Below are positions 12,711-28,464 of a stretch of DNA of 64,000 bases, piece by piece; positions within the stretch are counted from its first letter, which is position 1; every line of letters begins with the position of its first letter. The stretch is taken from the sequence record NZ_CP118990.1. One strand, written 5' to 3'. The translations under genes and the position numbers were made by a program. Source of the stretch: a plasmid. The notes under the pieces were generated by a model that did not search any database, was not told where the DNA came from, and was given only the letters and a program-made list of their open reading frames with translations.

Positions 12711-12953
12711 ATGAAAAAAATCGGTTTAAAATATAGAGCAGTATATCTGCTTGGATTTCCGTTAGCTGGAGTCCTTATAGGGATTGCAGTGTTCGCTTTA
12801 TTCAACTATGTGAATGGGCCTCTAAGTAAATTCGCCTTATATCTGTCCGTTGGTGTTTGGGGGGGGTATGGAGTGTTCTCAGGAACCTATGGATACTTAA
12901 ATCTAAGGAAAATATTAAAGTTAAAGAGAGCTAATGAGGAATCCAAGGATTAA
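12711..12953 (+). CDS. small membrane protein (2 TM), immunity-like
   Basis: Hydrophobic helices; low-GC island. Confidence 0.3.
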   Translation: MKKIGLKYRAVYLLGFPLAGVLIGIAVFALFNYVNGPLSKFALYLSVGVWGGYGVFSGTYGYLNLRKILKLKRANEESKD

Positions 12954-13000
12954 TTACGGCTCACATGGTTCTGCTATTGGCGTAGCTTTGGGGACGGTTT

Positions 13001-13300
13001 ATGGAAATCAATAACTGGTTTGATTTTATTATATACACAATTTATTTCTTTGGGGTTGTGATAGTTATCCTTCCTACTGGGGTTATCTTTCTTTGGTTGA
13101 CATTGAAAAATCTTGTCAAAATGAGAACCCCGAGATACGAAATAAAGCACTACAAGTATTTCTCTGCAAGAAATATATTTGAAGTGTGTGTTGCAGGTGT
13201 TTTTTCTGTGGCTTTTTCTGTTTGGTATCTGTTTTTTGCCAAAGGGGGAAATCTGTTTCTTTATCCGTCAGAGGTAATGAGATTTTTTTCAGGCGGATGA
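13001..13300 (+). CDS. small membrane protein, immunity-like
   Basis: Hydrophobic helices. Confidence 0.3.
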   Translation: MEINNWFDFIIYTIYFFGVVIVILPTGVIFLWLTLKNLVKMRTPRYEIKHYKYFSARNIFEVCVAGVFSVAFSVWYLFFAKGGNLFLYPSEVMRFFSGG

Positions 13301-13348
13301 TAGTGTGGATCAGGCTCTGGCGTTGGCCCGGCCGCCGTCAGCGGCCAA

Positions 13349-13759
13349 GTGGTTTGGAAGGCGAGCTACAGCCCGTTCGGTAAGGCCAGCGTCACCACCC
13401 AGGGGCCAACCTTCAACCTGCGATTCCCAGGACAGTATTACGACGCGGAGACCGGGCTCCATTACAACTGGCATCGCTACTATGACCCAGCACTTGGCCG
13501 TTACTTACAATCAGACCGCCTTGGCCTGTTCGATGGGGTGGATACCTATGGGTATGTTCGCGCAAACCCTTTATCTGCCGGAGCGGCGGCTGGTGCGGGT
13601 ATAGCCAGCCTGCTTGGTCAAAGTGCTGGTCTATATGTTTCAGGAAAGGATGTTACTGATTACTGTAATTATGATTTTTCCGCTGTGGCTGGAGCTGCGC
13701 TGGGAGGGGCTTTAGGAGGACCTCTAGGAAGTACAATAGGGCGTTATATTAGCCCTTAG
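13349..13759 (+). CDS. Orphan Rhs C-terminal fragment: last YD repeats, RHS core-end motif, and a short glycine-zipper toxin tip
   Basis: [51 protein letters not shown] matches the RHS repeat-associated core (RYYDPxxGRYxxxDPIGLxGGxNxYxYVxNNP). Then a Gly-rich [11 protein letters not shown]...[13 protein letters not shown] tail. Confidence 0.65.
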
Positions 13760-13823
13760 CGCTTTACAATCATTGGACGTCCATTAAGTTCATCAGGGAT
13801 AAATAAAATTCCGGGAAATACTG

Positions 13824-14153
13824 TTGGCTCTGTGGTTGAAGGTGTTACCGTTGGCTCGGGTGAATTATTTGGTAAGGGGTTTTAATATGATGTGGATTGT
13901 TACGGCCATGTACTTTGTTGTTGTATCAGGTCTTTTATTAGTAGGGTTCGTTGTTTATGGGAAAACTCTATTTTTCCTGGGTAGGTCCGGTGCCTTTGCT
14001 AAATATGTGGGGGGGGGGGTATTGTTTACGTGTTGTTTGCGTGTGTATTGGTTGCACCGTTATTTATTGCTCCCGTGTTTATCAATGGGTGGCGTGAAGC
14101 TTTTAATTCTAATGTGGTTTATGCAGTTTATTTTATGGTGCTTTTTGTTTTAG
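13824..14153 (+). CDS. small polytopic membrane protein, candidate immunity protein for the Rhs tip
   Basis: Immediately downstream of the Rhs CT; 3 hydrophobic helices. Confidence 0.35.
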   Translation: MALWLKVLPLARVNYLVRGFNMMWIVTAMYFVVVSGLLLVGFVVYGKTLFFLGRSGAFAKYVGGGVLFTCCLRVYWLHRYLLLPCLSMGGVKLLILMWFMQFILWCFLF

Positions 14154-14282
14154 CAGCATTACCGGGTGGGCTGTATTTCAAAAAGAATTTCTTATCTCGT
14201 CTGAGAAGGCTTGGCTACTTTAAGAAAAGGCAGTATTGAGAACGGCTTGAAATATTGCCACCAGCGGTTAAGCCTGCTGGTG

Positions 14283-14608
14283 GCGTAGGGAAGGTGCGAA
14301 TAAGTCACCAAACATAAAAATGTGTGGGATGAAAATAAAGTTTCATCCTTGCAAATAAAGTGTCATCCCAACGGGATGAAAGCATTGATTTTGCTGGGCT
14401 GTAGCCGTTCTTACTGCTCAAATCACTGACTTTAGGATGAAACTTTAACCATCGTAGCGGGCTGGATCGCAACGTAATTTCTGGGTTTCAAGGCGGCGAA
14501 AGGATGAAACTTTATTTTCATCCAACAAAATGCGCCCTTGTAAGTATTTGAATTTAATGAACTAAATTTTTCTGTTTCGTTGTGGAGGGTGCTTATTCGC
14601 ACCCTCCA
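14283..14608. repeat. Non-coding palindromic module (MITE-like) with three GGATGAAA-N-TTTCATCC palindromes and a terminal inverted repeat GGTGCGAATAAG / CTTATTCGCACC
   Basis: Palindromes at 14329-14350, 14363-14381 and 14501-14522. The right end forms a GGAGGGTGCttattcGCACCCTCC hairpin. Confidence 0.5.
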
Positions 14609-14772
14609 TAAATTCAAATATCTGATGGTCATCAATGACGATAATAAGAAGCGGGTATTGGTAACTGTATTTGAACGAAAGGAATAGTTGAGTAATTTGT
14701 CATATAGATCTTATTCTGCAAGGTGTAAAAAATCGGTGCCGACTAGGCAGTTATCGGACAGATCGCCTTGAA
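14609..14772. repeat. Direct repeat copy 2 (164 bp)
   Basis: Identical to 11389-11552. Confidence 0.9.
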
Positions 14773-15253
14773 AAAGCAGAGTAGAGATCTCTTGCTCTGT
14801 AATTAAATTATTGCTTTTAAGAACATTTATTAAGGCTGTATCAGCAATATCGTGGAATCCCTCAATAAGGTCTTCCACCATTGCGGCAGCCTTTCGTTCT
14901 TCTTCGCTTTTCCCCATCGACCCGTCGCAGAGCCAATCTTCCACATTGCCGTATTGGGCAACGTAACTGAGTTGTTCGCACTCATGCGCAATCAGCCCAG
15001 TAACTCTCTCCATGAGTAGGTCATCGTAGGTGGGGAGTACCAGCACTGCGCCATGGCCTGGGATGTTGCGTTGGACCGTCGCCTCACTCTGAGGGCTACT
15101 TTTGAGCCATGAGAAGGCCCAAAGACCAGAACCGATCTTTTCAAGAAATATGCCTCGCTCGGAGAAGAAATCGGAGACATTTTTGAAGATGGTGCCACCT
15201 GGAGCGGCCATCGAATAGATGGATGCCATTAGCTCATCCTGACTCATGTACAT
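14711..15253 (-). CDS. hypothetical protein (180 aa), convergent partner of the gene at 10742
   Basis: Clean ORF. Its last 19 codons (QGDLSDNCLVGTDFLHLAE) are duplicated in repeat copy 1, where they are fused to the ISAs1 remnant. Confidence 0.45.
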   Translation of the reverse strand: MYMSQDELMASIYSMAAPGGTIFKNVSDFFSERGIFLEKIGSGLWAFSWLKSSPQSEATVQRNIPGHGAVLVLPTYDDLLMERVTGLIAHECEQLSYVAQYGNVEDWLCDGSMGKSEEERKAAAMVEDLIEGFHDIADTALINVLKSNNLITEQEISTLLFQGDLSDNCLVGTDFLHLAE

Positions 15254-15496
15254 TCACACACACCTCTTGACTTGTTAATTTGTTTGTATAAGCGACCATC
15301 ACCGGGTCGATAATAAATCACGATCCTTGTACTAGACTTGTATAAGCAAAGATTGTACCAGTAGTACGGATTTCGAGTTAGGTTGCACAGTAAACTACCC
15401 GACAGACTATGACTGATAAAATTAAACTGCATCAGATTTTAGTCTATTCGATTGTAGACTGCTGAAAAGAGGATTAGCTCAAAGTGCGGGGGGAAC

Positions 15497-15543
15497 TTAA
15501 ATGGCTCATTGCGCTGAGTGTTTCTACACAATGAGCCATTTAA
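15497..15543. promoter_or_regulatory. 15-bp perfect inverted repeat TTAAATGGCTCATTG...CAATGAGCCATTTAA with a 17-nt loop, downstream of csf2
   Basis: Read directly. It is preceded by GCGGGGGGAACTTAAATGG, which resembles the CRISPR repeat 3' part. Confidence 0.4.
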
Positions 15544-15644
15544 TTGACCCTCTACAAGGGGAGGGAGTGACTGTTGGGGCTTTGAAGAGGCACCTAAGAC
15601 AATAGGCGTAAACCGCCAACTATTGGGCGGAAGCGACACGTCTG

Positions 15645-16676
15645 TCAGGCGTCTTTCTTTACCTTGTGGAAGGAGCTGGTGACGTCGTTGCGCCAAGCGT
15701 CATAGGCTAGGTGCAGCACTTCTCCCTCAACCCGGAACCCTTCACCATCAAATTCGATCTTACCAATAGTCACTGGGCTCAGTGCCTTCGGCGGCCAAGT
15801 CTTCACATCCCAAGAGCCGGATACCAAACCGCAGTTATGAGCTTGGTGTCCGCCCATGCGGGGGGAACGAGCGAATTCTAACAAAGCAGCAATGAAAAAG
15901 CCCAGTTCGATCTGACTGACTGACTTGAGGGACATGCGGTGCTCCATCACTGTACCGGCGCAGATCGCCTCGTATTGGTCGATGGGGCGACGTATAGACT
16001 CCCGAGCCTCCCCCTTCTGATCTTTGCGATCTTGGATTTGTGCGTCCAATGCCGCGAGCTGGTCAAACAACACCCTTTTCTCGTCGTTCGGAGCCGTTTT
16101 CAACTGTTTTTTCAGCTCTTTTTGCTTGTCCTTCAATACTCCGACGTCGGCGGAGGCAAGGGTCTGCTCTTCCAAAATGGTTTGGAGCCGGTTTCTTTCC
16201 GACTGATCCAGTGTTTCGAGGAGCTCCGGGGAGCGTTCAAACATGATGGTGCGAGCACCACCACCAAACATGGCCGTTGCATTGGCCGTGATGGGGAAGC
16301 CGTTCCCTATGTTAGCTTTTGATGGAAGCCCCCATATGCCGAAGAGACTCAGCATCGGGTTGCCTTCGCGCAAGTGTCGATCAGAGTTCACCTCGTCGTC
16401 GGCAGGGGCAGAAATATCTCCCACAATGTCTACCCCTTGGGCCAACATGAAATGCTCTGCCAGGTCAAATGGTGGGCGTTGATTGTCTTCATTGAACATC
16501 AACACAACCCGGTGCGCAGCATGGCGCAATGAACCACGGGTAGTCGTTGCAGGCCAATAAGCTGGGGCATCGAACCCGCCATTACGTGGCAGGCGGCCCT
16601 GGGTGTTTTTTATGGTGACGGTCAAGGGCTCAACTGCGGTCAGGTGGCCGTCGAAAACAAAGGTACTTTGAGTCAT
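15645..16676 (-). CDS. csf2: Type IV-A Cas7 (Csf2)
   Basis: 343 aa. Last gene of the dinG-containing cas operon. Gly-rich FGGGARTI loop; size and position fit Csf2. Confidence 0.6.
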   Translation of the reverse strand: MTQSTFVFDGHLTAVEPLTVTIKNTQGRLPRNGGFDAPAYWPATTTRGSLRHAAHRVVLMFNEDNQRPPFDLAEHFMLAQGVDIVGDISAPADDEVNSDRHLREGNPMLSLFGIWGLPSKANIGNGFPITANATAMFGGGARTIMFERSPELLETLDQSERNRLQTILEEQTLASADVGVLKDKQKELKKQLKTAPNDEKRVLFDQLAALDAQIQDRKDQKGEARESIRRPIDQYEAICAGTVMEHRMSLKSVSQIELGFFIAALLEFARSPRMGGHQAHNCGLVSGSWDVKTWPPKALSPVTIGKIEFDGEGFRVEGEVLHLAYDAWRNDVTSSFHKVKKDA

Positions 16677-16694
16677 GGAAATTCCTTGTTGATG

Positions 16695-17393
16695 TTAAAT
16701 CAGCTGGTGAAGCATTTCAGAACGGACCCTTTGGGGGGCGACAATGGGCATTTTTTCTTTTGAGTAATACGGAGGGAGCAGTGGCGATAGGCCTGGTACC
16801 CCATCGATCCCGGATGATACCGGGAGTGGTCGATTAGCCTTATCCAACAGGATAAGGCTGGCATCTTCCTGCATGGGGGTGATGATCAGATTATCAAAGG
16901 CTCCCATCTGGCAGTTCTGAGCGTCGTAACCTAAGCCCAGAACGAAAAAATCCAGCAACCCCTTTATCAGGTAGGGATTCCCCAATCCATCGAACACTGC
17001 AAAAGGGGCTTGGTAAGCGGGCATCTCCCGCAAGCGTCGTTTGGTCGGTCCTCCCTTGAGCTTGATCTTCACATAGCGTCCTTTGCCGTTGGGGGCAAAC
17101 ATCGCCGGAGATAGTTTCTCGGGAGTATGCCGATCTGCTCTGACGTAGCTGCCGACAGTCAAGCCAACGGCCATCGTGACACCGAATCTCATTGCCGAGG
17201 CATGGAAGACACCAAGTTGGTCGTTATAGAGAAGGTAGTTGCTCATTTCCTGCAAGAGTTCTTCCCTGCTGGCAAGTGGGGAGCGCTGGCTCAGAGCCTC
17301 AAAAACCAAAGCATCAAGAGTTGGGGGGTAGTCAGTTAATACCACCGGGGTCTTTAACGACATGACCAGGCGAAAGGGTTCAAATTCGAACAT
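16695..17393 (-). CDS. csf3: Type IV-A Cas5 (Csf3)
   Basis: 232 aa. Stop/start overlap with dinG; size and position fit Csf3. Confidence 0.55.
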   Translation of the reverse strand: MFEFEPFRLVMSLKTPVVLTDYPPTLDALVFEALSQRSPLASREELLQEMSNYLLYNDQLGVFHASAMRFGVTMAVGLTVGSYVRADRHTPEKLSPAMFAPNGKGRYVKIKLKGGPTKRRLREMPAYQAPFAVFDGLGNPYLIKGLLDFFVLGLGYDAQNCQMGAFDNLIITPMQEDASLILLDKANRPLPVSSGIDGVPGLSPLLPPYYSKEKMPIVAPQRVRSEMLHQLI

Positions 17394-19342
17394 CAGAAGT
17401 AAACCTCCAATGGAGTTGCAGGTGATTGCTCGCCGTCAGTTAACAGCCCTTTGGCCTGCCGGTACTGTTGCAGAAACCGAACGGGAATGATGTTTCGCAG
17501 GATGGCGTGTTTGGACGACAAATCGTGAGACAGTGGGAAACGGGGATCGAGAATATCGACTTCAATGCAATCGTCAGGTGAACGGATCCCGCGGCCAATG
17601 GCTTGTCGCATCAACCGAATAACGGCGTTTTGAGTACGCATATACTCCTGCTTGTAGAGCTGTTTACTCAGGTCAGTCTTCTTGGTCTTCTTGTAGAAAC
17701 TTACCAACGCTTCGACTTCGGAAGTGCGTGGTTGGCCGTAGGCAATTCGAGTGATCATCAGGCGATCGAATCCAACTGAGCCAGCGTCATCGGTGATATT
17801 GAGCCCGGTATGGCCCGCAGCGGTGATCATTACTCCCCGGCCATGATGTCTGCATACCTTCTTGAACTCTTCAATCAATGATTTGAGTGGGGTGCCACGC
17901 TGGTGGACCAGCACCTGCCGATGCTCAATTTGAGCCAAAACTGCGGCCAATTTACGGCTCTCTTCATGTGAAGCTGTCAGCACAACCACCCGTCCGCATC
18001 GGTTGGTGATCTGATGTGCGACTGCTTGCAACCATTTTTCAGAAAGGGCAGGGGCATTCCCCTCAGAGGACGGTCTTGAGTAGATAGCCGGGAACGAGGG
18101 GCCCGCCAGAGTCAGGGTCATGCTCCCATATTTTTTCGGGGAGAAAAGGGCAATGGCGCCGAGCATGGTGTCATCAATACCAAGTTCCATTCGCAACGAA
18201 GTGGTACCATTCACTGGCTCAGGCGTGATACTCAGTGTGCCGGAGGTGAGGAGAACAGACTCAAAAGCTGAGGTCGCGTATTTCCCGAAGAACCGAACAA
18301 ACCACGGGGAGAGTGAGACGATGGCCGGTTCCCGGCGTATCAGTGAAACGCCGATCCCCATGGACGAGGTTTGCATCATCAGGAGCTGCTGCTGCAAAGA
18401 TGTTGAGACATCCTTATCCAGGTTATTCAACCGGCAAATCTTCTCGATCTTTCCAATGGTGGCCCGCGCCAGTTCCGCCAGCTCGGTATCCCAGGCATAT
18501 TGCTGCATCCCCAGCCGCTCTTGGATTGTCTTAATTGAATTAGCAAGAGGGGCTAATTGCCGAGCTGATAGTTGCTCGCCCAACTGGGAGGCGACACGAA
18601 CAAGATTCAGGCGCCGCTGAGTCCATTCTTGCAACCGATTCACCAGGGCATCAGCTTCATCAACAATCAGCACTGTCGGCCGTGACTTATCGGCCAAAAG
18701 CGCATTATTTCGCAGCATGTCTACTGCGATCATGGCATGAGTTGTGACCACGATGTCGCATTTAGATTCAGCCTGTTGCTGTTCGTCAAATGCCTCATTT
18801 TCACACTCAGCCGTCAGGCAAATTTGAGAGGCCAACAAGTCGCAGGGGAGTCCGCCAAACTCATCCTCAAATTCTGCAATCGTCCCTGACCAGTCACGCA
18901 AAGTAGCCACTTCGCGCTCCTCTAGGGCTGACAGAGAGCGGTTGGTGAGGGCAATATTGATCCGCTTTGGCGATACGAAATTGACCCGTCCGAGAAGACG
19001 GCCGATAGACAACGGTCTATGTCCATAATGACGGGCGACTTTGGTCAGCAGCACACTGTCTTTTTCGAGAAGTTGTTGCATCAGTGCGTGGCTGTGTGTT
19101 GCGACGATAACCCGAGGGCGACGTGGGTCGCAGAGTGCAAACTGCATGGCTGGCAAGAGATAGCCCAGCGACTTTCCGAGGCCGGTGTCAGCGTGAAGAA
19201 GCGATATTTTCCCGGTGTCAGCCAGCACTTGCTCAATCATTAGCGCATATTGGGTCTGCTCATCCCGAGCGATGAGGCCGCCAGCGGCCATCAGCTCTCC
19301 GAACTTGGCTGTGTGGATCCCGTCCTCTGGCAAGGGGCTCAT
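17393..19342 (-). CDS. dinG: CRISPR-associated DinG-family helicase (Csf4)
   Basis: Walker A HADTGLGKSLGYLLPA and DEAD box VLIVDEADALV, typical of Rad3/XPD/DinG SF2 helicases. 649 aa. Confidence 0.8.
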   Translation of the reverse strand: MSPLPEDGIHTAKFGELMAAGGLIARDEQTQYALMIEQVLADTGKISLLHADTGLGKSLGYLLPAMQFALCDPRRPRVIVATHSHALMQQLLEKDSVLLTKVARHYGHRPLSIGRLLGRVNFVSPKRINIALTNRSLSALEEREVATLRDWSGTIAEFEDEFGGLPCDLLASQICLTAECENEAFDEQQQAESKCDIVVTTHAMIAVDMLRNNALLADKSRPTVLIVDEADALVNRLQEWTQRRLNLVRVASQLGEQLSARQLAPLANSIKTIQERLGMQQYAWDTELAELARATIGKIEKICRLNNLDKDVSTSLQQQLLMMQTSSMGIGVSLIRREPAIVSLSPWFVRFFGKYATSAFESVLLTSGTLSITPEPVNGTTSLRMELGIDDTMLGAIALFSPKKYGSMTLTLAGPSFPAIYSRPSSEGNAPALSEKWLQAVAHQITNRCGRVVVLTASHEESRKLAAVLAQIEHRQVLVHQRGTPLKSLIEEFKKVCRHHGRGVMITAAGHTGLNITDDAGSVGFDRLMITRIAYGQPRTSEVEALVSFYKKTKKTDLSKQLYKQEYMRTQNAVIRLMRQAIGRGIRSPDDCIEVDILDPRFPLSHDLSSKHAILRNIIPVRFLQQYRQAKGLLTDGEQSPATPLEVYF

Positions 19343-19911
19343 AACACCTCCAGGTTCGACAACTGGCCGTAGCCAAATACCCGCTTACGGCCAATGCCAT
19401 AAACAACAGCCTGCTCGGCCAGCGCAACATCCTTGATCTCAGCAACGACACTGACCGGGTTGCACTGGAGGGTGAAGCTCTGTTTTTTCTTGAGGTAGCG
19501 CTCCAGGTAGGGGCTGTTGGCTGAGTGGCTCTGGAGCGAGAGTCCTGCCCCTTCGCACTGCCTGGCTAGAACATCAGGCAAGATGGCCATCGGCAGATTC
19601 ATCGACCGTTTTTTGGTGGTGCCTGGGATCGGATGCTTGATTGGGAAGCAGAAGTTGAGGTTGAACATGACTGCATCTGCCACGTTCAGTTCAAGTTGTA
19701 CGGCTTGTTCGCCAGCTAGGCCAAGTTGCGTTGCCGATCGCAAGTAGATAACGGTTGTGTTGGGCTCATGAGGGTGAGCAATCCGCCGCCAGCTATAGGG
19801 GACTTTACAGCGCAATGTCTCCTGTACCAAATAATCAAGACGCTGGTGGACCAGATACGGAAGAGACGGGTCAGTTTCACGCAGTTTGAGGGTGTTTTCA
19901 TAGTAAATCAT
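19339..19911 (-). CDS. cas6: Cas6 endoribonuclease (Csf5 / Cas6e-like)
   Basis: 190 aa. C-terminal Gly-rich loop GIGRKRVFGYGQL (GxGxxxxxGxG signature of Cas6). Overlaps dinG and csf1. Confidence 0.65.
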   Translation of the reverse strand: MIYYENTLKLRETDPSLPYLVHQRLDYLVQETLRCKVPYSWRRIAHPHEPNTTVIYLRSATQLGLAGEQAVQLELNVADAVMFNLNFCFPIKHPIPGTTKKRSMNLPMAILPDVLARQCEGAGLSLQSHSANSPYLERYLKKKQSFTLQCNPVSVVAEIKDVALAEQAVVYGIGRKRVFGYGQLSNLEVL

Positions 19912-20744
19912 TGGAGCTTGTCCGCGATGTGAATCAGCTTGAGGCGCTGGTGGGGGTCCGCCGGTAAAGTGCGAAATATCGTGCCGAACGATGGTTTTTT
20001 GCTGATCTGTTCACTGGCCTGCTGGGGGGTAATGCGTCCGTTCGAGAGGCCAACGACTAACTTATTGAAGGCGTTGCGTTCCTGACTTGTTAGTGTGTTG
20101 AGCCCCCCTGATAGCCGCATGGCCGCATCCAGATTAACCGTGCATTCGACTCGGGTAACTGAATCCATACCGGCGTCACTACAGCAGTAGAGCGCCTGCG
20201 GTGACAGAGATATGGTCAACCCTCGCATAAGCGCCGCGGTTTTACGTCCGAAAGATTCGATGTATAGCAGAGGGAATTTTGCATTCTCTGCGATCCATGG
20301 CAGGTGACCACCAACGGTAATCTTCACCACATCGACGTGCTCTAAAAATGATGCAGGGAACTTGTCATACACCCCTGGTGGGGCTAGGAGCGTTGAACGC
20401 TGAGGCTTACCTGGGACATCTGCAATTTCGTGCACCCAACCGACACCACTCATCATTCCAAAGCGCTGGCCCACCTTCTTGTCGCTTTTCCCGGCAGTTC
20501 GCTCATTACCCATGATGTTGGGGTCGGTCACAAACATGGCCTGGCAAGGAGCACAGTGGTTGAACGGCGTTTTATAGCTATCCAGACCTTGATAACCCAC
20601 ACGGTCAAACGAGCTTGCAGGGCGCTTGCAGCAAGAACATGCCGCACCAGTCTTTACAGCTTCTCCCAAGGCTGGAGCCAAAATATGGGTGAGGTTGGCA
20701 TAAAGAAGATCAATTGGATGTTGCACGTCACCTCCGAGAAACAT
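19908..20744 (-). CDS. csf1: Type IV-A Cas8-like large subunit (Csf1) with a zinc finger
   Basis: 278 aa. First gene of the operon. CSCCKRP...HCAPC treble-clef-like Cys cluster. Confidence 0.55.
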   Translation of the reverse strand: MFLGGDVQHPIDLLYANLTHILAPALGEAVKTGAACSCCKRPASSFDRVGYQGLDSYKTPFNHCAPCQAMFVTDPNIMGNERTAGKSDKKVGQRFGMMSGVGWVHEIADVPGKPQRSTLLAPPGVYDKFPASFLEHVDVVKITVGGHLPWIAENAKFPLLYIESFGRKTAALMRGLTISLSPQALYCCSDAGMDSVTRVECTVNLDAAMRLSGGLNTLTSQERNAFNKLVVGLSNGRITPQQASEQISKKPSFGTIFRTLPADPHQRLKLIHIADKLQ

Positions 20745-20864
20745 TCTGAAACAGTTTCACATAAGATAATAGATTTCTTTTTTTTGTAAAGAGGCAGGTC
20801 CTTGATAATCGACCGTTTTTAGTGGCCTGGTAGAAACGGGTGCTGTATAAGCTAAAACCTCGGT

Positions 20865-20891
20865 ATGCCGCCCTTTGGCGGGGGTTAGCGG
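20865..20891 (+). repeat. Degenerate CRISPR-repeat-like sequence A (TGCCGCCCTTTGGCGGGGGTTAGCGG) in the cas promoter region
   Basis: Shares the hairpin plus GGGGGTTAACGG 3' part with the array repeats at 23890-24584; same orientation. Confidence 0.5.
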
Positions 20892-20936
20892 TTTGAGCCA
20901 GCGCAAAAACAAGCCAGAGCAGAGCCATGCTGGAGT

Positions 20937-20963
20937 GCCTCCCAGTGGCGGGGGTTAACAGAT
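20937..20963 (+). repeat. Degenerate CRISPR-repeat-like sequence B (GTGCCTCCCAGTGGCGGGGGTTAACAG)
   Basis: As for A. The two are separated by a 45-nt spacer-like segment. Confidence 0.45.
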
Positions 20964-21088
20964 GAATGGCAACCTCTGGGGTTGAACGGAGGTAAAGCTC
21001 CGGGGGCCATAGCCCCTATGTTGGGAGCGCCATGTTCAGTGACATTTTACCAACGGAACAAAGTTCTGGTGTTATTTCAGGGGGAAGT

Positions 21089-21751
21089 ATGAAGGGTAAT
21101 ATAATTTCATGGAAAGATGAAAAAGGCTTCGGCTTTATAAAAAATGATGAGAATGGCGAACATATATTTTTTCATATATCGAGCGTTATAAAAGGGACGA
21201 GGCAGCCTATTGTTGGTGATGCAGTTACATTTGATGTAGGGGTTGATTCCAGCAACCGAAAAAAAGCAAAAGATATTTTTATTGAAGGGGTGTCATTTAC
21301 CAATATCCCAAGGCGAGTATTTACGGAAAAGGTTAAGCGCGACCGTTTCGATTATTATTGTTACGTCGCGATAGTGTTATCAGTGGCAATAACACTCGCT
21401 GTGTATATTAAAATGGGGCAGCCTCGACTGGCATTATTTCCCGCCGCCGTTGCTATAATGCTGTTTTTGTATATCTCCGTCCGTACTAAAAAACCTGCAA
21501 ATGACATATTCTCATGCGGGAAATGCTCATCAGTGGTTAGACATGACGCAAGAACCATTCGGGCATGGAATAAGGGTGCGTGTAAATTATATTGCAGAAC
21601 CTGCAATCAGAACTGGCATCGTGAAAAGCCACAAAGGGATAGCACTAAAAAATATAATCGCCCTCAGAAGTCTGGATGTCTAGGGGTATTATTATTTATA
21701 ACATTCGTGCCGGTATTTTTAATTTCAAGCATCATCACCTTACTGGTGTAG
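21089..21751 (+). CDS. Cold-shock-domain protein fused to a 2-TM membrane domain and a C-terminal Cys4 zinc ribbon (CSD-DUF1294-like)
   Basis: GNIISWKDEKGFGFIKNDENGEHIFFHISSV is a CspA-type S1-like domain. Two hydrophobic helices follow. CGKCSSV...CKLYCRTC Cys cluster. Confidence 0.6.
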   Translation: MKGNIISWKDEKGFGFIKNDENGEHIFFHISSVIKGTRQPIVGDAVTFDVGVDSSNRKKAKDIFIEGVSFTNIPRRVFTEKVKRDRFDYYCYVAIVLSVAITLAVYIKMGQPRLALFPAAVAIMLFLYISVRTKKPANDIFSCGKCSSVVRHDARTIRAWNKGACKLYCRTCNQNWHREKPQRDSTKKYNRPQKSGCLGVLLFITFVPVFLISSIITLLV

Positions 21752-21786
21752 AAAGAAATGTTGAAGCCTTGTTGCCTGGACTATTA

Positions 21787-21822
21787 ACTGAATGAGCCTC
21801 ATCATAATCATGGGTGAGGCTT
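21787..21822 (+). terminator. Rho-independent terminator
   Basis: GCCTCAtcataatcatggGTGAGGC followed by T6. Confidence 0.65.
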
Positions 21823-21907
21823 TTTTAATGGCCCGATAAAGGGCGAAAAGTGTCGCTCTCAAATTGCCACGCACTGACCGCGTTTCCCAAGTCGATGACA
21901 CTGAATA

Positions 21908-22017
21908 GTGTACAAACTTTATTATGCAAGTGACTGATCTGTAGTGTCCGTTGTGTACAAACTTTACTGTCCGAGTCACCGCTACGCCGTGTTTGCTGCG
22001 TACAAACTTCATTGTCA
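21908..22017. promoter_or_regulatory. Three iteron-like direct repeats GTGTACAAACTTTAYTRTC spaced 46 and 44 bp apart
   Basis: Copies at 21908-21927, 21954-21973 and 21998-22017. Followed by an inverted repeat at 22099-22132 and an AT-rich stretch before the phosphatase gene. Confidence 0.55.
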
Positions 22018-22098
22018 CTGTACTGCTTGCGCAGCCTAACGGCGCCTGCGGCCACAGTACAGACAACCCCGCATTGCGTACTTCTCCATGCCCTCCTT

Positions 22099-22132
22099 CA
22101 CACACAGAGGCTCAAGCGTGTCTCTGTGTGTC
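22099..22132. promoter_or_regulatory. Inverted repeat CACACACAGAG-N12-CTCTGTGTGTC
   Basis: Read directly; upstream of the phosphatase-recombinase operon. Confidence 0.45.
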
Positions 22133-22222
22133 TCTACTTATTAAAATGATTCTTTGAAAAAGTAGTGTTTATAAAATAGGATAGTTGGCAGGAAAGTCCT
22201 TCATTTTTCACGGAGAGAACGC

Positions 22223-22753
22223 ATGAGAGAGGTGCACTTCATTAGCCAGGTCGAGGCCGAAAAACTGGCGCCGGTTGCCGGTGCGGCGATGATCTCGATC
22301 ACCGACCCGGACAAACCGGAGGCGGCCCTGGGAGATTGGCAACTCTTGTATCGGGACAGCTTTTACGATGGTGGCTACAGTGAGGACACCATCCGTACCA
22401 TGAAAGGGTCTTTTCGGATGAGCTACGCATCCTACATTGACTCCCATCAGGCGAAGAACCTATCCAACTACATCGATGAGCTGGTGCAGAGCGGCATCAG
22501 CCAGATCTTTGTTCACTGCTACTACGGGGAATCCCGAAGTGGCGCGATTGCTTTGTATCTGTGCAACAAACATGGATTCACCTCGAACAAGCCCATCACC
22601 AAGCCTAACAGGACGGTCTACGATCTCCTCTGCTCCCCTTTGAAATATGAAGCACTGATACAGAGTTACGAAACACAAGATGCTGCGCCTACCGAGAGTA
22701 TCTACACCAAGATATGGGATTTATTGCTCGTGGCTATCGGTGTTAGGAGGTAA
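22223..22753 (+). CDS. Cys-based phosphatase (CX5R P-loop; dual-specificity / PTP-like), 176 aa
   Basis: VHCYYGESRSG matches the HCxxGxxRS/T active-site signature. Confidence 0.6.
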   Translation: MREVHFISQVEAEKLAPVAGAAMISITDPDKPEAALGDWQLLYRDSFYDGGYSEDTIRTMKGSFRMSYASYIDSHQAKNLSNYIDELVQSGISQIFVHCYYGESRSGAIALYLCNKHGFTSNKPITKPNRTVYDLLCSPLKYEALIQSYETQDAAPTESIYTKIWDLLLVAIGVRR

Positions 22754-22755
22754 CT

Positions 22756-23760
22756 TTGCACCAACGGAACAACCGCGACACCACTGAACTTTCACACGCG
22801 AAAGTCATTGTCTTGCCAGAACAAACCTCAGGTGGAGGCCTCCCGCAAGTCACCGGGGGGCTCAGAAGCGCACAAGATAATCCGGCAGTTGCATACCTGA
22901 TCAGCCTTGGCTCCAGGCGCAGTCGGCAAACCATGGGCTCATTTCTCAGCATTGTTGCTCGGATGATCGGGTACCAAAACCTGCGTGATTGCGCGTGGGA
23001 GTCGATGCGGCGGCATCATGTCCAAGCTGTGATCCAAATGCTCAGTGACTCTGACCGAGCGCCAGCTACGATCAATACCTACCTGGCAGCGCTGAAAGGA
23101 GTTGCCCTGGAAGCGTGGACAATGAAGCTGATTGATACCGACAGTTACCAGCATATCAAGCAGGTGCGTTCGGTGAGAGGCTCTCGTTTACCCAACGGGC
23201 GGGCCCTCGAAAAGCACGAGGTCAGAGCCCTTTATTTCACATGTGAAAACGATCGGAGCTCCAAAGGGCTGCGTGACGCAGCCATCCTTGCTGTTTTAGT
23301 CGGGTGCGGACTTCGGCGCTCAGAGGTTGTCGCCCTCGATATGGAATGTGTCATCACCAGGGATCAGGCACTTCGTGTGCTCGGTAAGGGCAATAAAGAA
23401 CGCATCGCCTATGTGCCTGACGGGGCATGGCAGCGGCTTATGCGGTGGGTGGAGGAGGTTCGTGGTGATCAGCCGGGATCGCTGTTTCAGCGGATCAGGC
23501 GGTTTGATGATGTCACCGCCGACAGAATGACTGACCAGGCTATCTATCACATTCTTGAAACGAGAAGGATTGAGGCGGGGCTGGAAAAATTCGCTCCTCA
23601 TGATCTCCGCAGAACCTTTGCATCGGCCATGCTGGATAATGGCGAGGACATCATCACGGTCAAGGATGCGATGGGCCATGCCAGTGTCACGACCACGCAG
23701 AAGTATGATCGTCGGGGAGATGAGCGATTGAAACAGGCCAGTCGGCGACTCGATTTTTGA
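22756..23760 (+). CDS. Tyrosine site-specific recombinase (phage integrase / XerCD family)
   Basis: C-terminal HDLRRTFASAMLDNGEDIITVKDAMGHASVTTTQKYDRR carries the catalytic R...HxxR...Y region. Start is 3 nt after the phosphatase stop. Confidence 0.8.
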   Translation: MHQRNNRDTTELSHAKVIVLPEQTSGGGLPQVTGGLRSAQDNPAVAYLISLGSRRSRQTMGSFLSIVARMIGYQNLRDCAWESMRRHHVQAVIQMLSDSDRAPATINTYLAALKGVALEAWTMKLIDTDSYQHIKQVRSVRGSRLPNGRALEKHEVRALYFTCENDRSSKGLRDAAILAVLVGCGLRRSEVVALDMECVITRDQALRVLGKGNKERIAYVPDGAWQRLMRWVEEVRGDQPGSLFQRIRRFDDVTADRMTDQAIYHILETRRIEAGLEKFAPHDLRRTFASAMLDNGEDIITVKDAMGHASVTTTQKYDRRGDERLKQASRRLDF

Positions 23761-23862
23761 GTCGGAAGACCAATGTTAATCAGTTGCGCACTCAGAATTT
23801 AAGAGGTAAATTTCAGCCACCAATCCTCAAGTGTGCGAACATCGCTGAACGTGACCTAATCT

Positions 23863-23886
23863 TGATGGTAATTGTTGACTTGGTAA
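23863..23886 (+). promoter_or_regulatory. Candidate sigma70 promoter in the CRISPR leader (TTGATG-17-AAGTAT)
   Basis: Hexamers read directly. The leader 23761-23889 is AT-richer than its surroundings. Confidence 0.35.
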
Positions 23887-23889
23887 GTA

Positions 23890-24584
23890 TCGCCCCCCCG
23901 CAGGTGGGGGTTAACGGGCGTGTAAAGCGTCCAACGTGACTTACAGAAAATCGCCCCCCCGCAGGTGGGGGTTAACGGAGTGGATGCATTTGCTGACTTC
24001 CACCGATGAATCGTCCCCCGTGCCTGGGGGTTAACGGTACTCGGCCTGGCACAACATGGACCTCACCCGATTTCTCCCCCGCAGCTGGGGGTTAACGCCG
24101 CGAGGGGAGCTGTTGCTATAGCGGGAATGAATCCCCCACCGCAGGCGGGGGTTAACGGCGTCAGCACATCACACAGCTATTGAGCACCAGATCGATCCCC
24201 CGCAGGCGGGGGTTAACGGTTTTCGATGATGTCGGTGGCGTTTGCCATCATATCGCCCCCCGCAGGCGGGGGTTAACGGACGCTGATAACGCATATCGAC
24301 GACGGATTTGAATCACCCCCCCGCAGGCGGGGGTTAACGGCCCGCGGGATAGAGAAGTGGTGCCATCAGCGCATCTCTCCCCCGAGCCTGGGGGTTAACG
24401 GTGCCCTTTTTGTGCACAAACAAAAAAATCAAAATCCATCCCCCTGTTACGGGGGTTAACGAAGCGGGACGTCGTGGTGCTGTGCTGCGGCTGCATCTCC
24501 CCCCAGCAGGCGGGGGTTAACGTTAGCTTCACACCAGGCCTTGATAGCATCGCCGATCTATCCCTCGCGACTGGGGGTTATCGG
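23890..24584 (+). CRISPR. CRISPR array: 12 repeats of about 28 nt (consensus about TCGCCCCCCGCAGGCGGGGGTTAACGG) and 11 spacers of 32-37 nt. The degenerate terminal repeat is at the 3' end.
   Basis: Period about 61 bp. Spacers are unique. The conserved GGGGGTTAACGG 3' handle and C5-7/G5 stem resemble type I-E/IV-A repeat architecture. The last repeat is TCCCTCGCGACTGGGGGTTATCGG. Confidence 0.85.
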
Positions 24585-24772
24585 GAGGAAGCATGGCACA
24601 ACAGAACGTTTTCCTTCTTCGATTGAGGGTTATGCGCGAAATGGCCGCCGACACCGACTCGGTGATCTCTGCCGTCACGGCCGAGCTGCCAGTCGGTTTC
24701 CCTGAGCACATTAGCAAGGCCATTTTTTCTGGGTTGTCGGCTCAAGCAGCCAAGCTTCTGAGAGGGTGAGAA

Positions 24773-25270
24773 ATGGCTGAAATGAGCAATTTTGGGGAAA
24801 GCTTCAAGCTTTATTCCGACGGGCAACGAGATCCTGTCAAGCGCACAGGCCTGAACGTCCAGTACACAGAGACTCGGGCCAACTACCCGACAATCAGCAT
24901 CGAGATCGCTCCCATCCGGGCGGCAGGAGCAAAAGCAGACTGGGAGCAGAAGATCACAGTACAACTGACCAGGGCAGAGCTGACCGCGTTCTGCGGTGTG
25001 ATGTTTGGGCTCAGGAAGGATGCCACAGGGTCATACCATGGTGACGCCAACAACAAGAGCTTCGCGACATACTGCAACGGCAAGTCCGGCGTCGCCATCC
25101 TTCTCATGGCACGAGGGAACCAGTACCAGCACCTCATTACACCCGATGACCGAATGGAGCTAGCTGTATTCGCGATAAGGAGGTTGGCTGAGGCATGGAA
25201 GGTCACCCCTTCTGATGCGATTGCGATGCTCCGTCAAGGGGCGTGGATGAGCAAGAATCAGGTAAATTAG
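24773..25270 (+). CDS. hypothetical protein (165 aa)
   Basis: ORF with a GAGGGTGAGAA RBS; a terminator follows at 25289-25313. Confidence 0.4.
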   Translation: MAEMSNFGESFKLYSDGQRDPVKRTGLNVQYTETRANYPTISIEIAPIRAAGAKADWEQKITVQLTRAELTAFCGVMFGLRKDATGSYHGDANNKSFATYCNGKSGVAILLMARGNQYQHLITPDDRMELAVFAIRRLAEAWKVTPSDAIAMLRQGAWMSKNQVN

Positions 25271-25288
25271 AATGGGTTAGATAATGAA

Positions 25289-25313
25289 AATCCCGCTTGA
25301 GCGGGCTTTTCGA
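25289..25313 (+). terminator. Rho-independent terminator
   Basis: CCCGCTtgaGCGGG followed by CTTTTCG. Confidence 0.5.
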
Positions 25314-25526
25314 AATTTGGGGTGGCCCTGCATGACAGGGCCAGTACGAACCTAGTGTCATCACCAGTAAGGTAGCTGGGAGAGGACGGAGCCTAGAAGT
25401 AGAGATCCCGCTAGGTCCTCTTATTTTCAATTGGCTACTCTTGTCTGCTCTTGATTTGCACTTGTTTAATACTGATTCCGCCGCGGTTACTCTCCTCCTG
25501 CACCTGACCAAACGGAGAGAAATTAT

Positions 25527-26107: not shown

Positions 26108-27220
26108 ATGCCGCTAAAGTGCTTGCACCACCACACCACCATCTTCGCCTTTGATTTCGATGCAGCAGGTTGGGAGAAACTGAAAGCCAGCAACCGAGCA
26201 GATGCCGGCCTCATAATGACATGCTGCCAGGCCCGAGCGGTCCCGAAGGTATCCAAGCTCGGCACCCGGTTCTTTGCACATCACAAGAGTGGCGAATGTA
26301 CCAGCACACCGGAGACAGCGGAGCACCTATGGGCCAAGACCATCGTCTGTCAGGCTGCCCGAGCGGCAGGGTGGACAGCCGATACGGAGGTAAGGGGCCA
26401 AACTCCGGCCGGTGAAGACTGGGTGGCCGATGTGCTATCCACCAAAGGCAGCGCTAAGGTCGCCATCGAGATCCAGTGGTCACGCCAAGGCACCGAAGAG
26501 ACCCAGCGCCGTCAGCGTCGCTATGCCGACTCTGGAGTGCGAGCATTATGGCTACTGCGTCACCCTGACCTGCTGGTGGAGCGGGGCACGCCATCGTTCT
26601 TGTTGGATGTCCGAGCGAGTGAGTCAGCAGCCTTCGTGCGACTCCCATCAAGCCAATTCGATCCGCGCTGGGTCACCAACCGCAACAAGAGCGAAGCGGA
26701 ATATTGGCAGCAAACCATCGCGCTGGAGACGTTCGTCCGTGGAGCCCTGACCGGCTCATTAAAGTTCGCCCCGGCGATTGACCAGCCCATACCGGTGACC
26801 ATCAGTGCCACAAAGATCCGGTGCTGGCGCTGTAAGCGTGAGACCTGGACGGTACAAGGGCTTACCCTGGAGGTCAGTACGCGGTTCGCGGGTCACCCAG
26901 ACCTGCACACGAGCCTTGAAGAGCTCGATAGCGGGGAGGAGACTGCACCGTGGCTGGCTAACTTGTTCCCGGCCGCACTGTTGAAGCAACACGGGATAGG
27001 CGTGATCAAGCCGCGCTTTAGCCGCACAGCAGGATGCAGCTATCTATCGAACGGCTGTACACACTGCGACGCCCTCCAGGGTCGCCACTTTGACCACGAC
27101 GATTACCAGGAAGCGACCGACGTCTGCCAGTATGAAGTCACCCTGAGTAGTGAGTTGCTAGAGCAACTGGCTACCGTGGGCAACGATATTGCCTATCGCT
27201 GGTGGTTTGCAGAGAGGTAA
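26108..27220 (+). CDS. CoiA-like nuclease-family protein with a C-terminal zinc ribbon
   Basis: AIEIQWSRQG...RRYADSGVRALWL fits the CoiA-like (PD-(D/E)xK) signature. CWRCKRE...CTHCD Cys pairs. Confidence 0.45.
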   Translation: MPLKCLHHHTTIFAFDFDAAGWEKLKASNRADAGLIMTCCQARAVPKVSKLGTRFFAHHKSGECTSTPETAEHLWAKTIVCQAARAAGWTADTEVRGQTPAGEDWVADVLSTKGSAKVAIEIQWSRQGTEETQRRQRRYADSGVRALWLLRHPDLLVERGTPSFLLDVRASESAAFVRLPSSQFDPRWVTNRNKSEAEYWQQTIALETFVRGALTGSLKFAPAIDQPIPVTISATKIRCWRCKRETWTVQGLTLEVSTRFAGHPDLHTSLEELDSGEETAPWLANLFPAALLKQHGIGVIKPRFSRTAGCSYLSNGCTHCDALQGRHFDHDDYQEATDVCQYEVTLSSELLEQLATVGNDIAYRWWFAER

Positions 27221-27237
27221 ACGTGGCCGGTTTCTTC

Positions 27238-27527
27238 ATAAATTAGACCATCATGCAGCGAGGGGTAGAAAGCCCCACACCAACCCCCGAGGCCTACCTT
27301 TTACCCCGGCGCCGCTCCACTGAGCGCGTCTCTTCTTTCTCTCTCTTTTTCTCTCTTTCTCAATCTAATCTCCCGCGAGCGCGGGCCTAGCACAGGGGCT
27401 GAGCTCGTTCGGGGGTAAGGCTCACCGGGTCCAACATTGTCACGATAAAACATCGGGCTCACCCTCCCCCGACGCCGCGCAGCGGCGGCGATCATCTCTT
27501 ATACCCCTCGTTGCATGATGGTCTAAT
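27238..27527. repeat. 290-bp segment bounded by 25-bp inverted repeats (ATTAGACCATCATGCAGCGAGGGG / CCCCTCGTTGCATGATGGTCTAAT). The interior holds a polypyrimidine mirror tract and GC hairpins.
   Basis: Read directly; one mismatch between the arms. It lies immediately upstream of the Tus-like gene. Confidence 0.6.
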
Positions 27528-27582
27528 ATTGCCTATTCTCTAACCAATATTCTATCGGTACAAACCCCAGGTAAGGACCTCC

Positions 27583-28464
27583 ATGCAGACTAACTTCATC
27601 TCCGAACAGTACACAGCCATCACCCGTGACCTCGATCGCCTCGCAACTCTCATCCGGCGCCTGCCCCATCGCGACGCCCGTGTCGCGGCCATCACACCCA
27701 CGGCCAAAGGCTCCGAAAGCGAGCCTACAACCAACATTGTTGTCCTGGAACAAACCGGGAGCGATGCCCTGGCGCTCGCCGCCGACTGCTACCGGGATCT
27801 CCACATCATCCCCCAGCTCTCCCAGAAGTCGGCCCGCCGAACCGTCGGCGTATTGTGGCTCTCCCCTTCCCAGAGCGGCGCGGCCGCCACTGACGAGCTC
27901 CGGCAGCTGGTGGACCGCATCAACACCGCCAAGGCCGGTATCGAGACGTTCATCGTCTCCAACTACGGCACCCGCCAGGAGCGTTTTGAGGCACTCCGGG
28001 CCGAATGCCCCGGCGTGATGACCCTGCACCTGTACCGGCAGATCCGGTGCTATGCCGAGGGGGACGTGGATTCTATCCGGTTCACCTGGCAGCAGAAGGA
28101 CTCGCTCAAACGGCCCGACAAAGATGAGCTGATGCGCCGGATCCGGGTTGAACTGGAGAAAGCAGGGCCAGATTTTCGGCCGCAGCTGGAGGAGCTGCTC
28201 GACAAGATTTCCGGCACCCCCGAGGCAGCGCTGCGCGAGCGCCGGGAGGTAAAGGTGCAGCCGGTGGCAAACATCATGGCCGCGGGGGCACTGAGAACGG
28301 TGACGGCACCGATGCCTCTGATCCTGCTCCAGGATGCTGATGCCAAGATCAAGATGCTCAAGTCGTTTGACCCGAAGGCAGGGCGCAAAACGCGGAACGA
28401 CCGGGTGGAATCCCGTGTTATCGGGACATTTTGCGGGGTCGCCATCGAGGCATTTCCGTTGTGA
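27583..28464 (+). CDS. Tus-like DNA replication terminus site-binding protein homologue
   Basis: Similar to E. coli Tus: GVMTLHLYRQI vs GLITLNAYRTL, IRFTWQQKD vs LRFGWANKH, VKVQPVANI vs VKVQPIARV, APMPLILLQD vs CPTPLIALIN. Confidence 0.6.
   Translation: MQTNFISEQYTAITRDLDRLATLIRRLPHRDARVAAITPTAKGSESEPTTNIVVLEQTGSDALALAADCYRDLHIIPQLSQKSARRTVGVLWLSPSQSGAAATDELRQLVDRINTAKAGIETFIVSNYGTRQERFEALRAECPGVMTLHLYRQIRCYAEGDVDSIRFTWQQKDSLKRPDKDELMRRIRVELEKAGPDFRPQLEELLDKISGTPEAALRERREVKVQPVANIMAAGALRTVTAPMPLILLQDADAKIKMLKSFDPKAGRKTRNDRVESRVIGTFCGVAIEAFPL

Follow-up and report, generated by a model that had tools for sequence, protein, structure and literature searches.

A probable type IV-A3 CRISPR-Cas module with a detached array on a conjugative multiresistance plasmid of Aeromonas

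We analyzed a stretch of 64,000 nt from the plasmid record NZ_CP118990.1 (the window, meaning the whole stretch) and, within it, the region 15645-24584, which holds five cas genes of a DinG-associated CRISPR-Cas system together with a CRISPR array. The five open reading frames (ORFs) are intact, lie on the minus strand between 15645 and 20744, and encode, in the order of transcription, proteins of 278, 190, 649, 232 and 343 aa: csf1, the Cas8-like large subunit (19908..20744); cas6, a Cas6e-like CRISPR RNA (crRNA) endoribonuclease (19339..19911); dinG/csf4, the CasDinG helicase (17393..19342); csf3, the Cas5 protein (16695..17393); and csf2, the Cas7 backbone subunit (15645..16676). The first four genes overlap at their boundaries by 4, 4 and 1 nt in turn, and 18 nt separate csf3 from csf2. 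The array, with 12 repeats and 11 spacers, lies on the plus strand (23889..24584), and 3,145 bp with three ORFs separate the start of csf1 from the first repeat. In all these features the locus agrees with an earlier description made from the letters alone (the sequence-only reading), which had reported five minus-strand genes and, on the opposite strand, a single array behind three genes and 3.1 kb upstream of csf1. All five ORFs are full length, with translational coupling through overlapping stop and start codons, and we regard the module as complete and intact. Overall, we assign a probability of about 0.85 to the reading that the locus is a complete interference module of type IV-A3, carried by a conjugative multiresistance plasmid of Aeromonas, with its cognate, leader-bearing array detached from the cas genes.

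Five cas genes and their order

The five proteins were compared with the PADLOC profile set, which includes the CRISPRCasTyper subtype models, and with the PDB. All five matched type IV profiles, and four of them (Csf1, Csf2, Csf3 and DinG) matched chains of the solved K. pneumoniae IV-A3 effector/DinG complex over their full length, which bears out the assignment to DinG-associated type IV-A in the sequence-only reading. For three proteins, namely Csf1, Cas6 and Csf2, the matching profile was specific to IV-A3. Csf1 matched Csf1_2_IVA3 (E=2.2e-65) and the Csf1 chain 8RC2_G of the K. pneumoniae complex (E=4.7e-57). The tyrosine by which Klebsiella Csf1 contacts the protospacer-adjacent motif (PAM), Y51, aligns with Y57 of the window protein, whose PAM loop is three residues longer. 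The N-terminal zinc finger that had been noticed earlier is represented by the cysteine cluster CxCC...CxxC (C36, C38, C39, C64 and C67). Some gene callers place the start of csf1 so that the product has 272 aa instead of 278 aa. Csf3 matched Csf3gr5 (E=2.2e-72) and PDB 8RC2_F (E=6.3e-60). Csf2 matched Csf2_1_IVA3 (E=2.1e-103) and PDB 8RC2_A (E=1.4e-100 over residues 5-331), and it is full length, with the IV-A3 thumb helices included.

Cas6 matched Cas6_0_IVA3 (E=1.5e-23) and, more weakly, Cas6e models; its match to Pfam CRISPR_assoc lay below the cut-off. At the C-terminus is the glycine-rich loop GIGRKRVFGYG, which fits the pattern GxGxxxxxGxG under which the loop had originally been described. 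A Cas6e-like enzyme is a hallmark of IV-A3, as opposed to Cas6f or Csf5 in IV-A1 and IV-A2, and the window Cas6 is of the Cas6e-like kind. IV-A1 systems, by contrast, have another gene order, a Cas6f-like enzyme or Csf5 for processing, and I-F-like repeats (PMC7038947).

The order csf1-cas6-dinG-csf3-csf2, with similar protein sizes, is unchanged in pENVA of K. pneumoniae, pKOX-ea2b of K. oxytoca and pAeme3 of A. media, all found by tblastn with the window DinG, and the same five genes follow each other in four further Aeromonas contigs (annotated loci in the range L018-L022). As it was seen in every IV-A3 locus inspected, in Klebsiella and in Aeromonas, this is the standard, ancestral order of subtype IV-A3. 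The sequence-only reading had called the gene order unusual and the locus rearranged, and had proposed a synteny comparison as a check. Neither claim holds: the window has the same synteny as the IV-A3 reference loci, with no rearrangement of the operon. The layout with dinG at one end, against which that reading had compared the locus, is the layout of IV-A1-type loci.

The likeness to the Klebsiella IV-A3 systems (p1530 and pENVA; structures 8RC2 and 8S35; IncHI1B/IncFIB plasmids) covers the same five genes in the same order with a Cas6e-like Cas6, a 28+1-nt hairpin repeat with a 7-nt 3' tail, 32-33-nt spacers and an AAG PAM. It also covers a locus in which no cas1, cas2 or nuclease gene was found, a large conjugative resistance plasmid as the carrier, and spacers against conjugation genes of other plasmids. 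The window differs in its host, Aeromonas, and in its pAsa4/IncA/C-like backbone. It also differs in the place of the array, which in Klebsiella lies about 65 nt 3' of csf2 on the same strand and in the window 3.1 kb 5' of csf1 on the other strand. None of cas1, cas2, cas3 and cas10 was present among the ten genes scanned between 14711 and 25270 (the window outside this interval was assigned to backbone or resistance by similarity, not scanned protein by protein for cas genes), nor in the called genes of ten DinG contexts. With type I-E systems the window shares repeat length and hairpin, 32-33-nt spacers, an AAG whose G is carried into the array, and a Cas6e-like Cas6; on the other hand, its effector proteins are Csf proteins and not Cascade, and the locus has no cas3, cse1, cse2, cas1 or cas2.

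The 649-aa DinG matched the general IV-A profile Csf4_0_IVA with 513 bits (E=3.9e-154) and the IV-A1 DinG profiles with 60-65 bits only; in the PDB it matched 8S35_M, the DinG of K. pneumoniae IV-A3 (E=1.4e-97). Against the housekeeping NCBIfam models it reached 105 bits for YoaA, where the cut-off is 680, and 88-98 bits for DinG, where the cut-offs are 598-789. The Walker A and DEAD motifs that the sequence-only reading had named are found at residue 54 (GLGKS) and residue 228, respectively, and are invariant in an alignment of 20 sequences. By these scores the protein is clearly a CasDinG, not a housekeeping DinG. Its identity is 33-36% to the Klebsiella proteins and 61-62% to pAeme3, and the protein database holds graded Aeromonas relatives at 90, 62, 55, 53 and 40% identity. 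The exact sequence is listed in 87 blocks of an assembly collection.

The pseudo-FeS region of this protein, between motifs Ia and II, contains four cysteines, at residues 167, 175, 180 and 195 (C-x7-C-x4-C-x14-C, in the context LPC..QIC..AEC..KCD), whereas the solved Klebsiella DinG has none. All four are kept in Aeromonas relatives that are at least 61% identical, and the count drops to 3, 2, 1 and 0 across the IV-A3 family. CasDinG proteins have been stated to be without the cysteines of the iron-sulfur (Fe-S) type, the pseudo-FeS domain having one cysteine or none and three or four being counted as an FeS domain (PMC11981726). With its four cysteines, the window DinG lies outside the one-or-none definition and, judged by its sequence, contradicts the general statement on cysteine loss in CasDinG; metal binding by these residues would be hypothetical. 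The position aligned with Cys120 of E. coli DinG is a serine, so the set is not the canonical motif. The sequence-only reading had held that a lack of Csf profile matches, together with a DinG that matches the housekeeping protein and retains an Fe-S cysteine cluster, would refute it. There was no such match to housekeeping DinG, but four cysteines are present in the pseudo-FeS region.

The detached array and its plasmid setting

The array has a period of 60-61 nt, and each unit consists of a 28-nt repeat (ATCGCCCCCCCGCAGGTGGGGGTTAACG), a 29th base (G in 8 of the 11 units) and a spacer of 30-32 nt. Where chance alone would give 1.5 matches to the repeat pattern in the window, there are 18, and an nhmmer profile of the repeat recovers all 12 copies with E = 5e-8 to 2.5e-4; there is no second array within the 64-kb window. 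The first two repeats are identical and the trailer-end repeats are degenerate. For this reason we take the array to be read away from the cas genes and the 128 nt between the stop of the preceding recombinase gene (23760) and the first repeat, 23761..23888 on the plus strand, to be the leader, a delimitation also drawn from the alignment with related arrays. The newest spacers are at the leader end. The repeat RNA forms a hairpin and a 7-nt 3' tail whose register is that of the Klebsiella IV-A3 repeat (GTATTCCCCCCGYRTGCGGGGGTTATCG), and about two-thirds of the bases of the two repeats are identical as judged by eye. Overall the repeats are I-E-like, that is, 28-29 nt long with a GC hairpin, a 7-8-nt 3' handle and 32-33-nt spacers.

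In the alignment the leader is nearly identical in the window, in L018 (a contig with a 90% identical DinG), in the contig L010 and in three sibling plasmids without cas genes. A leader motif, GAACATCGCTGAACGTG with variants, lies about 45-65 nt 5' of the first repeat, and the arrays of pAeme3, L020 and L021 have it at that same spacing. It is common to every Aeromonas IV-A3 array, those next to csf1 and those apart from it, and it may bind adaptation or host factors. That the cognate leader has been kept is our main reason for holding that the detached array still belongs to the IV-A3 system and has moved as a unit of leader and array. Its assignment to the cas genes draws further on the repeat geometry, which is that of Klebsiella IV-A3, and on the pairing of cas genes with a detached array that recurs in L018.

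The flanks of the window are 88-92% identical to pAsa4-type Aeromonas plasmids with a MOBH relaxase and an MPF_F mating-pair system, in keeping with the plasmid-borne nature that had been stated before. Compared with pAsa4, the cas operon is an insert of about 6 kb in one slot, and the array replaces a helix-turn-helix/HipA (hipBA-like) gene pair in another slot; pAsa4 has the 176-aa and recombinase genes that precede the array in the window and has neither cas genes nor array. L018 has the same backbone and the same cas insert, its array is again 3' of the recombinase gene, and two backbone genes stand in place of a cold-shock-domain gene and degenerate repeats that the window carries upstream of csf1 (see below). 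More generally, A. media pAeme3 and the A. veronii/A. caviae contigs L018-L022 have the same operon as the window, with a DinG that is 55-90% identical, antisense arrays and the common leader motif. Where the array stands differs between them. In L020 and L021, in contrast to the detached array of the window, it is directly 5' of csf1, and its leader and the cas promoter stand back to back. pAeme3 (CP038446) has two arrays (2036-2420 and 12875-13325 of locus L003), one 3' of csf2 and one 5 kb upstream, both antisense to the cas genes. The canonical position, directly 3' of csf2 on the cas strand, is not where the window array lies, but this position is a trait of layout and not part of the definition of IV-A3. 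The detached, divergently oriented array is a real peculiarity of the window locus and a trait that it has in common with its relatives. As a candidate for a decayed array at the canonical place we considered three hairpin-like units at 15484-15630, which look repeat-like by eye; they were rejected on their spacing of 65 and 70 nt and a repeat-profile E of 94 or no match at all.

The three sibling plasmids in PLSDB (AP019196, AP022242 and AP022282) have a 17-repeat array in this same place of the backbone (13758-14756 in the locus from NZ_AP022242.1), preceded by the same leader, and IS66-family copies and Mu-like genes are found where the cas operon would be. With the window they have eight spacers in common, most of them towards the trailer; eight others, most of them towards the leader, are not shared. 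One sibling-array spacer is also present in the array of the cas-bearing L018, so the orphan arrays are most simply explained as descendants of cas-bearing ancestors that have lost their cas genes. The order of the spacers differs between L010 and the window, which points to recombination between arrays, a process already noted for IV-A3 (PMC7038947). As a part of the preferred reading, and with the same high confidence, we consider the cas operon and the leader with its array to behave as separable modules, each occupying a variable backbone slot of its own.

Upstream of csf1, a consensus scan gives a putative promoter of the cas operon (TTTACA-16-TATCTT; 20763..20790, minus strand), located in a stretch of about 50 nt that is the only part of the region 5' of csf1 to be conserved in L018 and L019, the relatives at 90% identity. 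A 66-aa ORF annotated in this place by some gene callers (20728-20928, minus strand) was rejected as spurious: it overlaps the promoter and the first of two degenerate repeat-like elements, and its basic translation is unlike a real protein. These two elements lie on the array strand between csf1 and the cold-shock-domain gene, 70 nt apart with a 47-nt insert. Element 1, CGCCCTTTGGCGGGGGTTAGCGG (20869..20891), is 125 nt from csf1; it matches the repeat pattern with 2 mismatches and is the second-best non-array nhmmer match in the window (E=2.2). Element 2, CTCCCAGTGGCGGGGGTTAACAG (20939..20961), matches the pattern and is the best non-array nhmmer match (E=0.16), with a hairpin and a 3' tail in the register of the true repeats. 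Both are absent from L018 and L019, came with the segment of the cold-shock-domain gene, and sit about where the leader-proximal repeats sit in L021; the contig L014 carries a version of element 2 that is closer to the consensus. The simplest reading is that they are the vestige of an array that formerly abutted csf1.

We also considered whether the two elements could form a self-regulating crRNA-like element and found no support for this. The pseudo-spacers have no match of PAM plus seed in 20600-21200, which covers the cas and neighboring promoters; elsewhere in the window they have only chance matches of at most 11-14 nt, they have none in PLSDB, and the 90% relatives are without the elements. 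Degenerate repeats near csf1 together with a small membrane-protein gene presumably resemble regulators of the CreTA/CreR type and RNA anti-CRISPRs; unlike the CreTA/CreR type, however, the window elements have no seed-plus-PAM match to promoters and are not conserved in the 90% relatives.

Three genes on the plus strand stand between csf1 and the array. The first (21032..21751) encodes a 239-aa protein with an N-terminal cold-shock domain (CSD), hydrophobic segments and a Cys-rich stretch (Pfam CSD, E=2.5e-10; PADLOC CSD_V, E=7e-8). It has a weak match of the retron-effector CSD type, and the NCBIfam model for the retron Se72 effector is far below its cut-off. This gene is divergent from csf1 and adjoins it in all ten contexts of the exact DinG, is missing in the 90% relatives, and is not a cas gene. 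The second (22223..22753; 176 aa) is a gene of the plasmid backbone with 92% DNA identity to pAsa4 and a sub-threshold match to Pfam DSPc, a phosphatase-like family. The third (22756..23760; 334 aa) encodes a XerC/D-like tyrosine recombinase (Pfam Phage_integrase, E=3.4e-32) that is conserved in pAsa4 and in IncC-type plasmids; over the recombinase region, plasmid records from E. coli, Salmonella, Citrobacter and Klebsiella that we take to be IncC-type are 81% identical to the window.

On the other side of the array, a 58-aa ORF (24596-24772, plus strand) begins a few bases 3' of the terminal degenerate repeat, which lies just 5' of its ribosome-binding site; the annotation of related contigs includes this ORF as a gene. 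At 26108-28464, a CoiA-like nuclease gene (370 aa) and a gene for a Tus/Ter terminus protein (293 aa) follow from the Pfam annotation of an identical contig. The resistance and transposon region, at about 28500-49300, carries a Tn3-family transposase, a mer operon, msr(E) and IS66, has a GC content from 34% to 65%, and is 99.8% identical to plasmids of A. caviae, A. media and A. salmonicida. It includes a perfect 7-nt tandem repeat, CTCTGGG, in 7.6 copies (43349-43419). The CRISPR array itself was not detected by the tandem-repeat program TRF because its spacers differ, which is not evidence against the array. A search of 15000-25500 against Rfam gave no family at E<=0.1.

Spacer targets and the predicted mode of action

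A single search compared all 11 spacers of the window with 72,556 plasmids. Sibling arrays aside, the sole match was that of spacer 6 (24220-24250), which agrees at 29 of 31 positions with the pilin gene traA of six large Aeromonas plasmids, annotated in some of the six records as 'pili assembly chaperone' or 'hypothetical protein'. Both variants of the traA target are preceded by AAG. The two mismatches to the target on pMCR5_045096 are at positions 18 and 24 of the spacer. In complexes of the I-E type every sixth base is flipped out; as positions 18 and 24 are also codon third positions, no conclusion is drawn from them. Among the six targets is pAeme3, itself the carrier of a sister IV-A3 system, so two IV-A3-bearing plasmid families appear to be in conflict. 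A further 17 spacers from sister arrays gave three more targets, two of which are traC of pAsa_2939, with an AAG flank, and the 3-kb plasmid pAerIX, with a GAG flank. In this small sample of four distinct protospacers, we find the 5'-AAG PAM of IV-A3 at traA and traC (for the third sister-array target, see below). None of the 28 spacers matches any of 50,697 phage records, and the window spacers have no self-match in the window outside the array. The sequence-only reading had proposed a functional module of inter-plasmid competition with a rearranged locus. Its first part is plausible, given the traA target with its AAG and the absence of phage matches, whereas the rearrangement has to be given up.

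The 29th repeat base, mostly G, corresponds to the G of the AAG at the traA protospacer. Carry-in of this G with Cas1-Cas2e integration has been shown experimentally for IV-A3 (bioRxiv 10.1101/2023.06.23.546257), and by analogy we interpret the mostly-G 29th base of the window array as a signature of Cas1-Cas2e integration. Among the arrays of the sibling plasmids, the spacers in common stand towards the trailer and most of the differences near the leader. We think it most likely that a type I-E-like adaptation module encoded by the host adds new spacers in trans. A loose pattern, CCCCN7GGGGGTTAACG, was aimed at chromosomal I-E arrays in genome contigs and gave at least 120 single chance matches.

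The predicted function, namely crRNA processing and DinG-dependent interference without cleavage, is modeled on K. pneumoniae IV-A3. The five cas genes form one operon, and the guides would come from the array, which has a conserved leader of its own and is oriented for transcription in the direction leading away from the cas genes. By homology with Klebsiella IV-A3, Cas6 would cut the precursor crRNA at the 3' base of the repeat hairpin and stay on the 3' handle. Csf3 would cap the 5' UUAACGG handle and Csf2 would polymerize along the spacer, giving a complex of Csf1, Csf3, several Csf2 and Cas6 on the crRNA. Csf1 together with Csf3 would read the 5'-AAG PAM, with the formation of an R-loop on double-stranded DNA. 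The R-loop would in turn recruit DinG to the non-target strand, where it would translocate in the 5'-3' direction without cutting the DNA. The action of DinG may thereby silence transcription and destabilize rival plasmids, and a rival plasmid with silenced traA or traC would be unable to assemble its pilus. Interference that depends on DinG and needs no nuclease is known for the Csf complex of IV-A1 from Pseudomonas oleovorans and P. aeruginosa (PMC11519345), a likeness that is predicted for the window from its genes.

Competing explanations and significance

Several observations weigh against the reading of a complete IV-A3 module with its own detached array. Cas6 had no sequence match in the PDB. 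Only one of the 11 window spacers has a database match; a hit in the tra region, which the sequence-only reading had expected, was thus obtained, with the other ten spacers matching nothing. The third sister-array target, on a 7.5-kb A. hydrophila plasmid, is matched at 32/32 positions and has GCA at its flank instead of AAG. No sigma-70-like site was found in the leader at the scan threshold. The promoter and terminator scan gave no terminator-like site between the recombinase gene and the array either, and from these two results, transcription of the array by read-through from the recombinase operon is possible. Finally, the three sibling plasmids have no DinG homologue by tblastn and no cas genes, and the contigs L013 and L014 have an identical cas operon with no array within reach on the contig; the cas operon and the array are accordingly not obligatorily linked.

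This loose linkage is the ground for the alternative that survives best, namely that the array is an independent feature of the backbone: either an orphan relic, or a source of guides for another effector, such as a chromosomal I-E Cascade or a IV-A3 system on another replicon. It is in line with the siblings, which keep their arrays at the same site without DinG, with the two different variable slots occupied by operon and array (pAsa4 having its hipBA-like pair in the place of the array and no cas insert), and with the I-E-like repeat, spacer length and PAM. We nevertheless consider it improbable, as the repeat geometry matches that of IV-A3 repeats, the leader motif matches that of arrays abutting csf1 in other Aeromonas IV-A3 loci, and cas genes and array are found together in two lineages with about 10% divergence between them. 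Furthermore, the spacer that an orphan array has in common with a cas-bearing relative fits a loss of cas genes and not an independent origin.

Less probable still, to the point of being very unlikely, is a decaying, non-functional remnant left after a rearrangement, in which erosion would show itself in the detached array and the degenerate repeats. The two degenerate elements next to csf1, the degenerate trailer repeats, the ten spacers without a match and the loss of cas genes in siblings could all be read in this way. Such a decay is, however, at odds with five full-length, translationally coupled ORFs, with the conservation of catalytic and structural motifs, and with an identical DinG in many independent assemblies. 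Also against erosion are two leader-proximal repeats that do not differ from each other, a leader that is almost unchanged across lineages, and a spacer content that varies between relatives. A IV-A system with a rearranged operon, in which the helicase has moved into the middle, can practically be dismissed: the order does differ from csf4, csf5, csf1, csf2, csf3 in Thioalkalivibrio (PMC7434947) and from P. aeruginosa IV-A1, where casDinG is upstream in the opposite orientation (PMC11981726), but it is the same, with similar protein sizes, in all IV-A3 loci inspected.

A bolder proposal, a speculation to which we give rather low odds, has two independent parts. First, the siblings without cas genes may keep leader and array because these still work in trans; second, the CasDinG may still bind, or may have regained, an Fe-S or Zn cluster through its four cysteines. 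If the first part were true, the sibling arrays could be loaded onto IV-A3 effectors of a co-resident replicon or updated by a host I-E Cas1-Cas2, and plasmids without cas genes would be guide-only participants in plasmid warfare.

Returning to the preferred reading of an intact IV-A3 module with a detached array, a search of the literature available to us found no description of type IV-A systems in Aeromonas, and to our knowledge studies of type IV-A3 have been confined almost entirely to Klebsiella IncHI1B/IncFIB plasmids. From the protein identities, we regard the window system as a divergent Aeromonas branch of IV-A3 in an under-described host and plasmid group, and as such mildly new. 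The current view of the type IV-A mechanism is unchanged by it, and its value is incremental. The four-cysteine CasDinG offers a simple biochemical test case for the Fe-S cluster loss claimed for CasDinG proteins. For annotation pipelines that expect the array beside csf2, the locus is of practical use, and it raises the question of whether arrays serve effectors in trans. The branch sits on Aeromonas conjugative resistance plasmids near pAsa4 and IncA/C, carriers that spread resistance genes in aquatic as well as clinical settings, and it is more flexible in its layout than that of Klebsiella, with arrays that are upstream, antisense, detached or orphaned.

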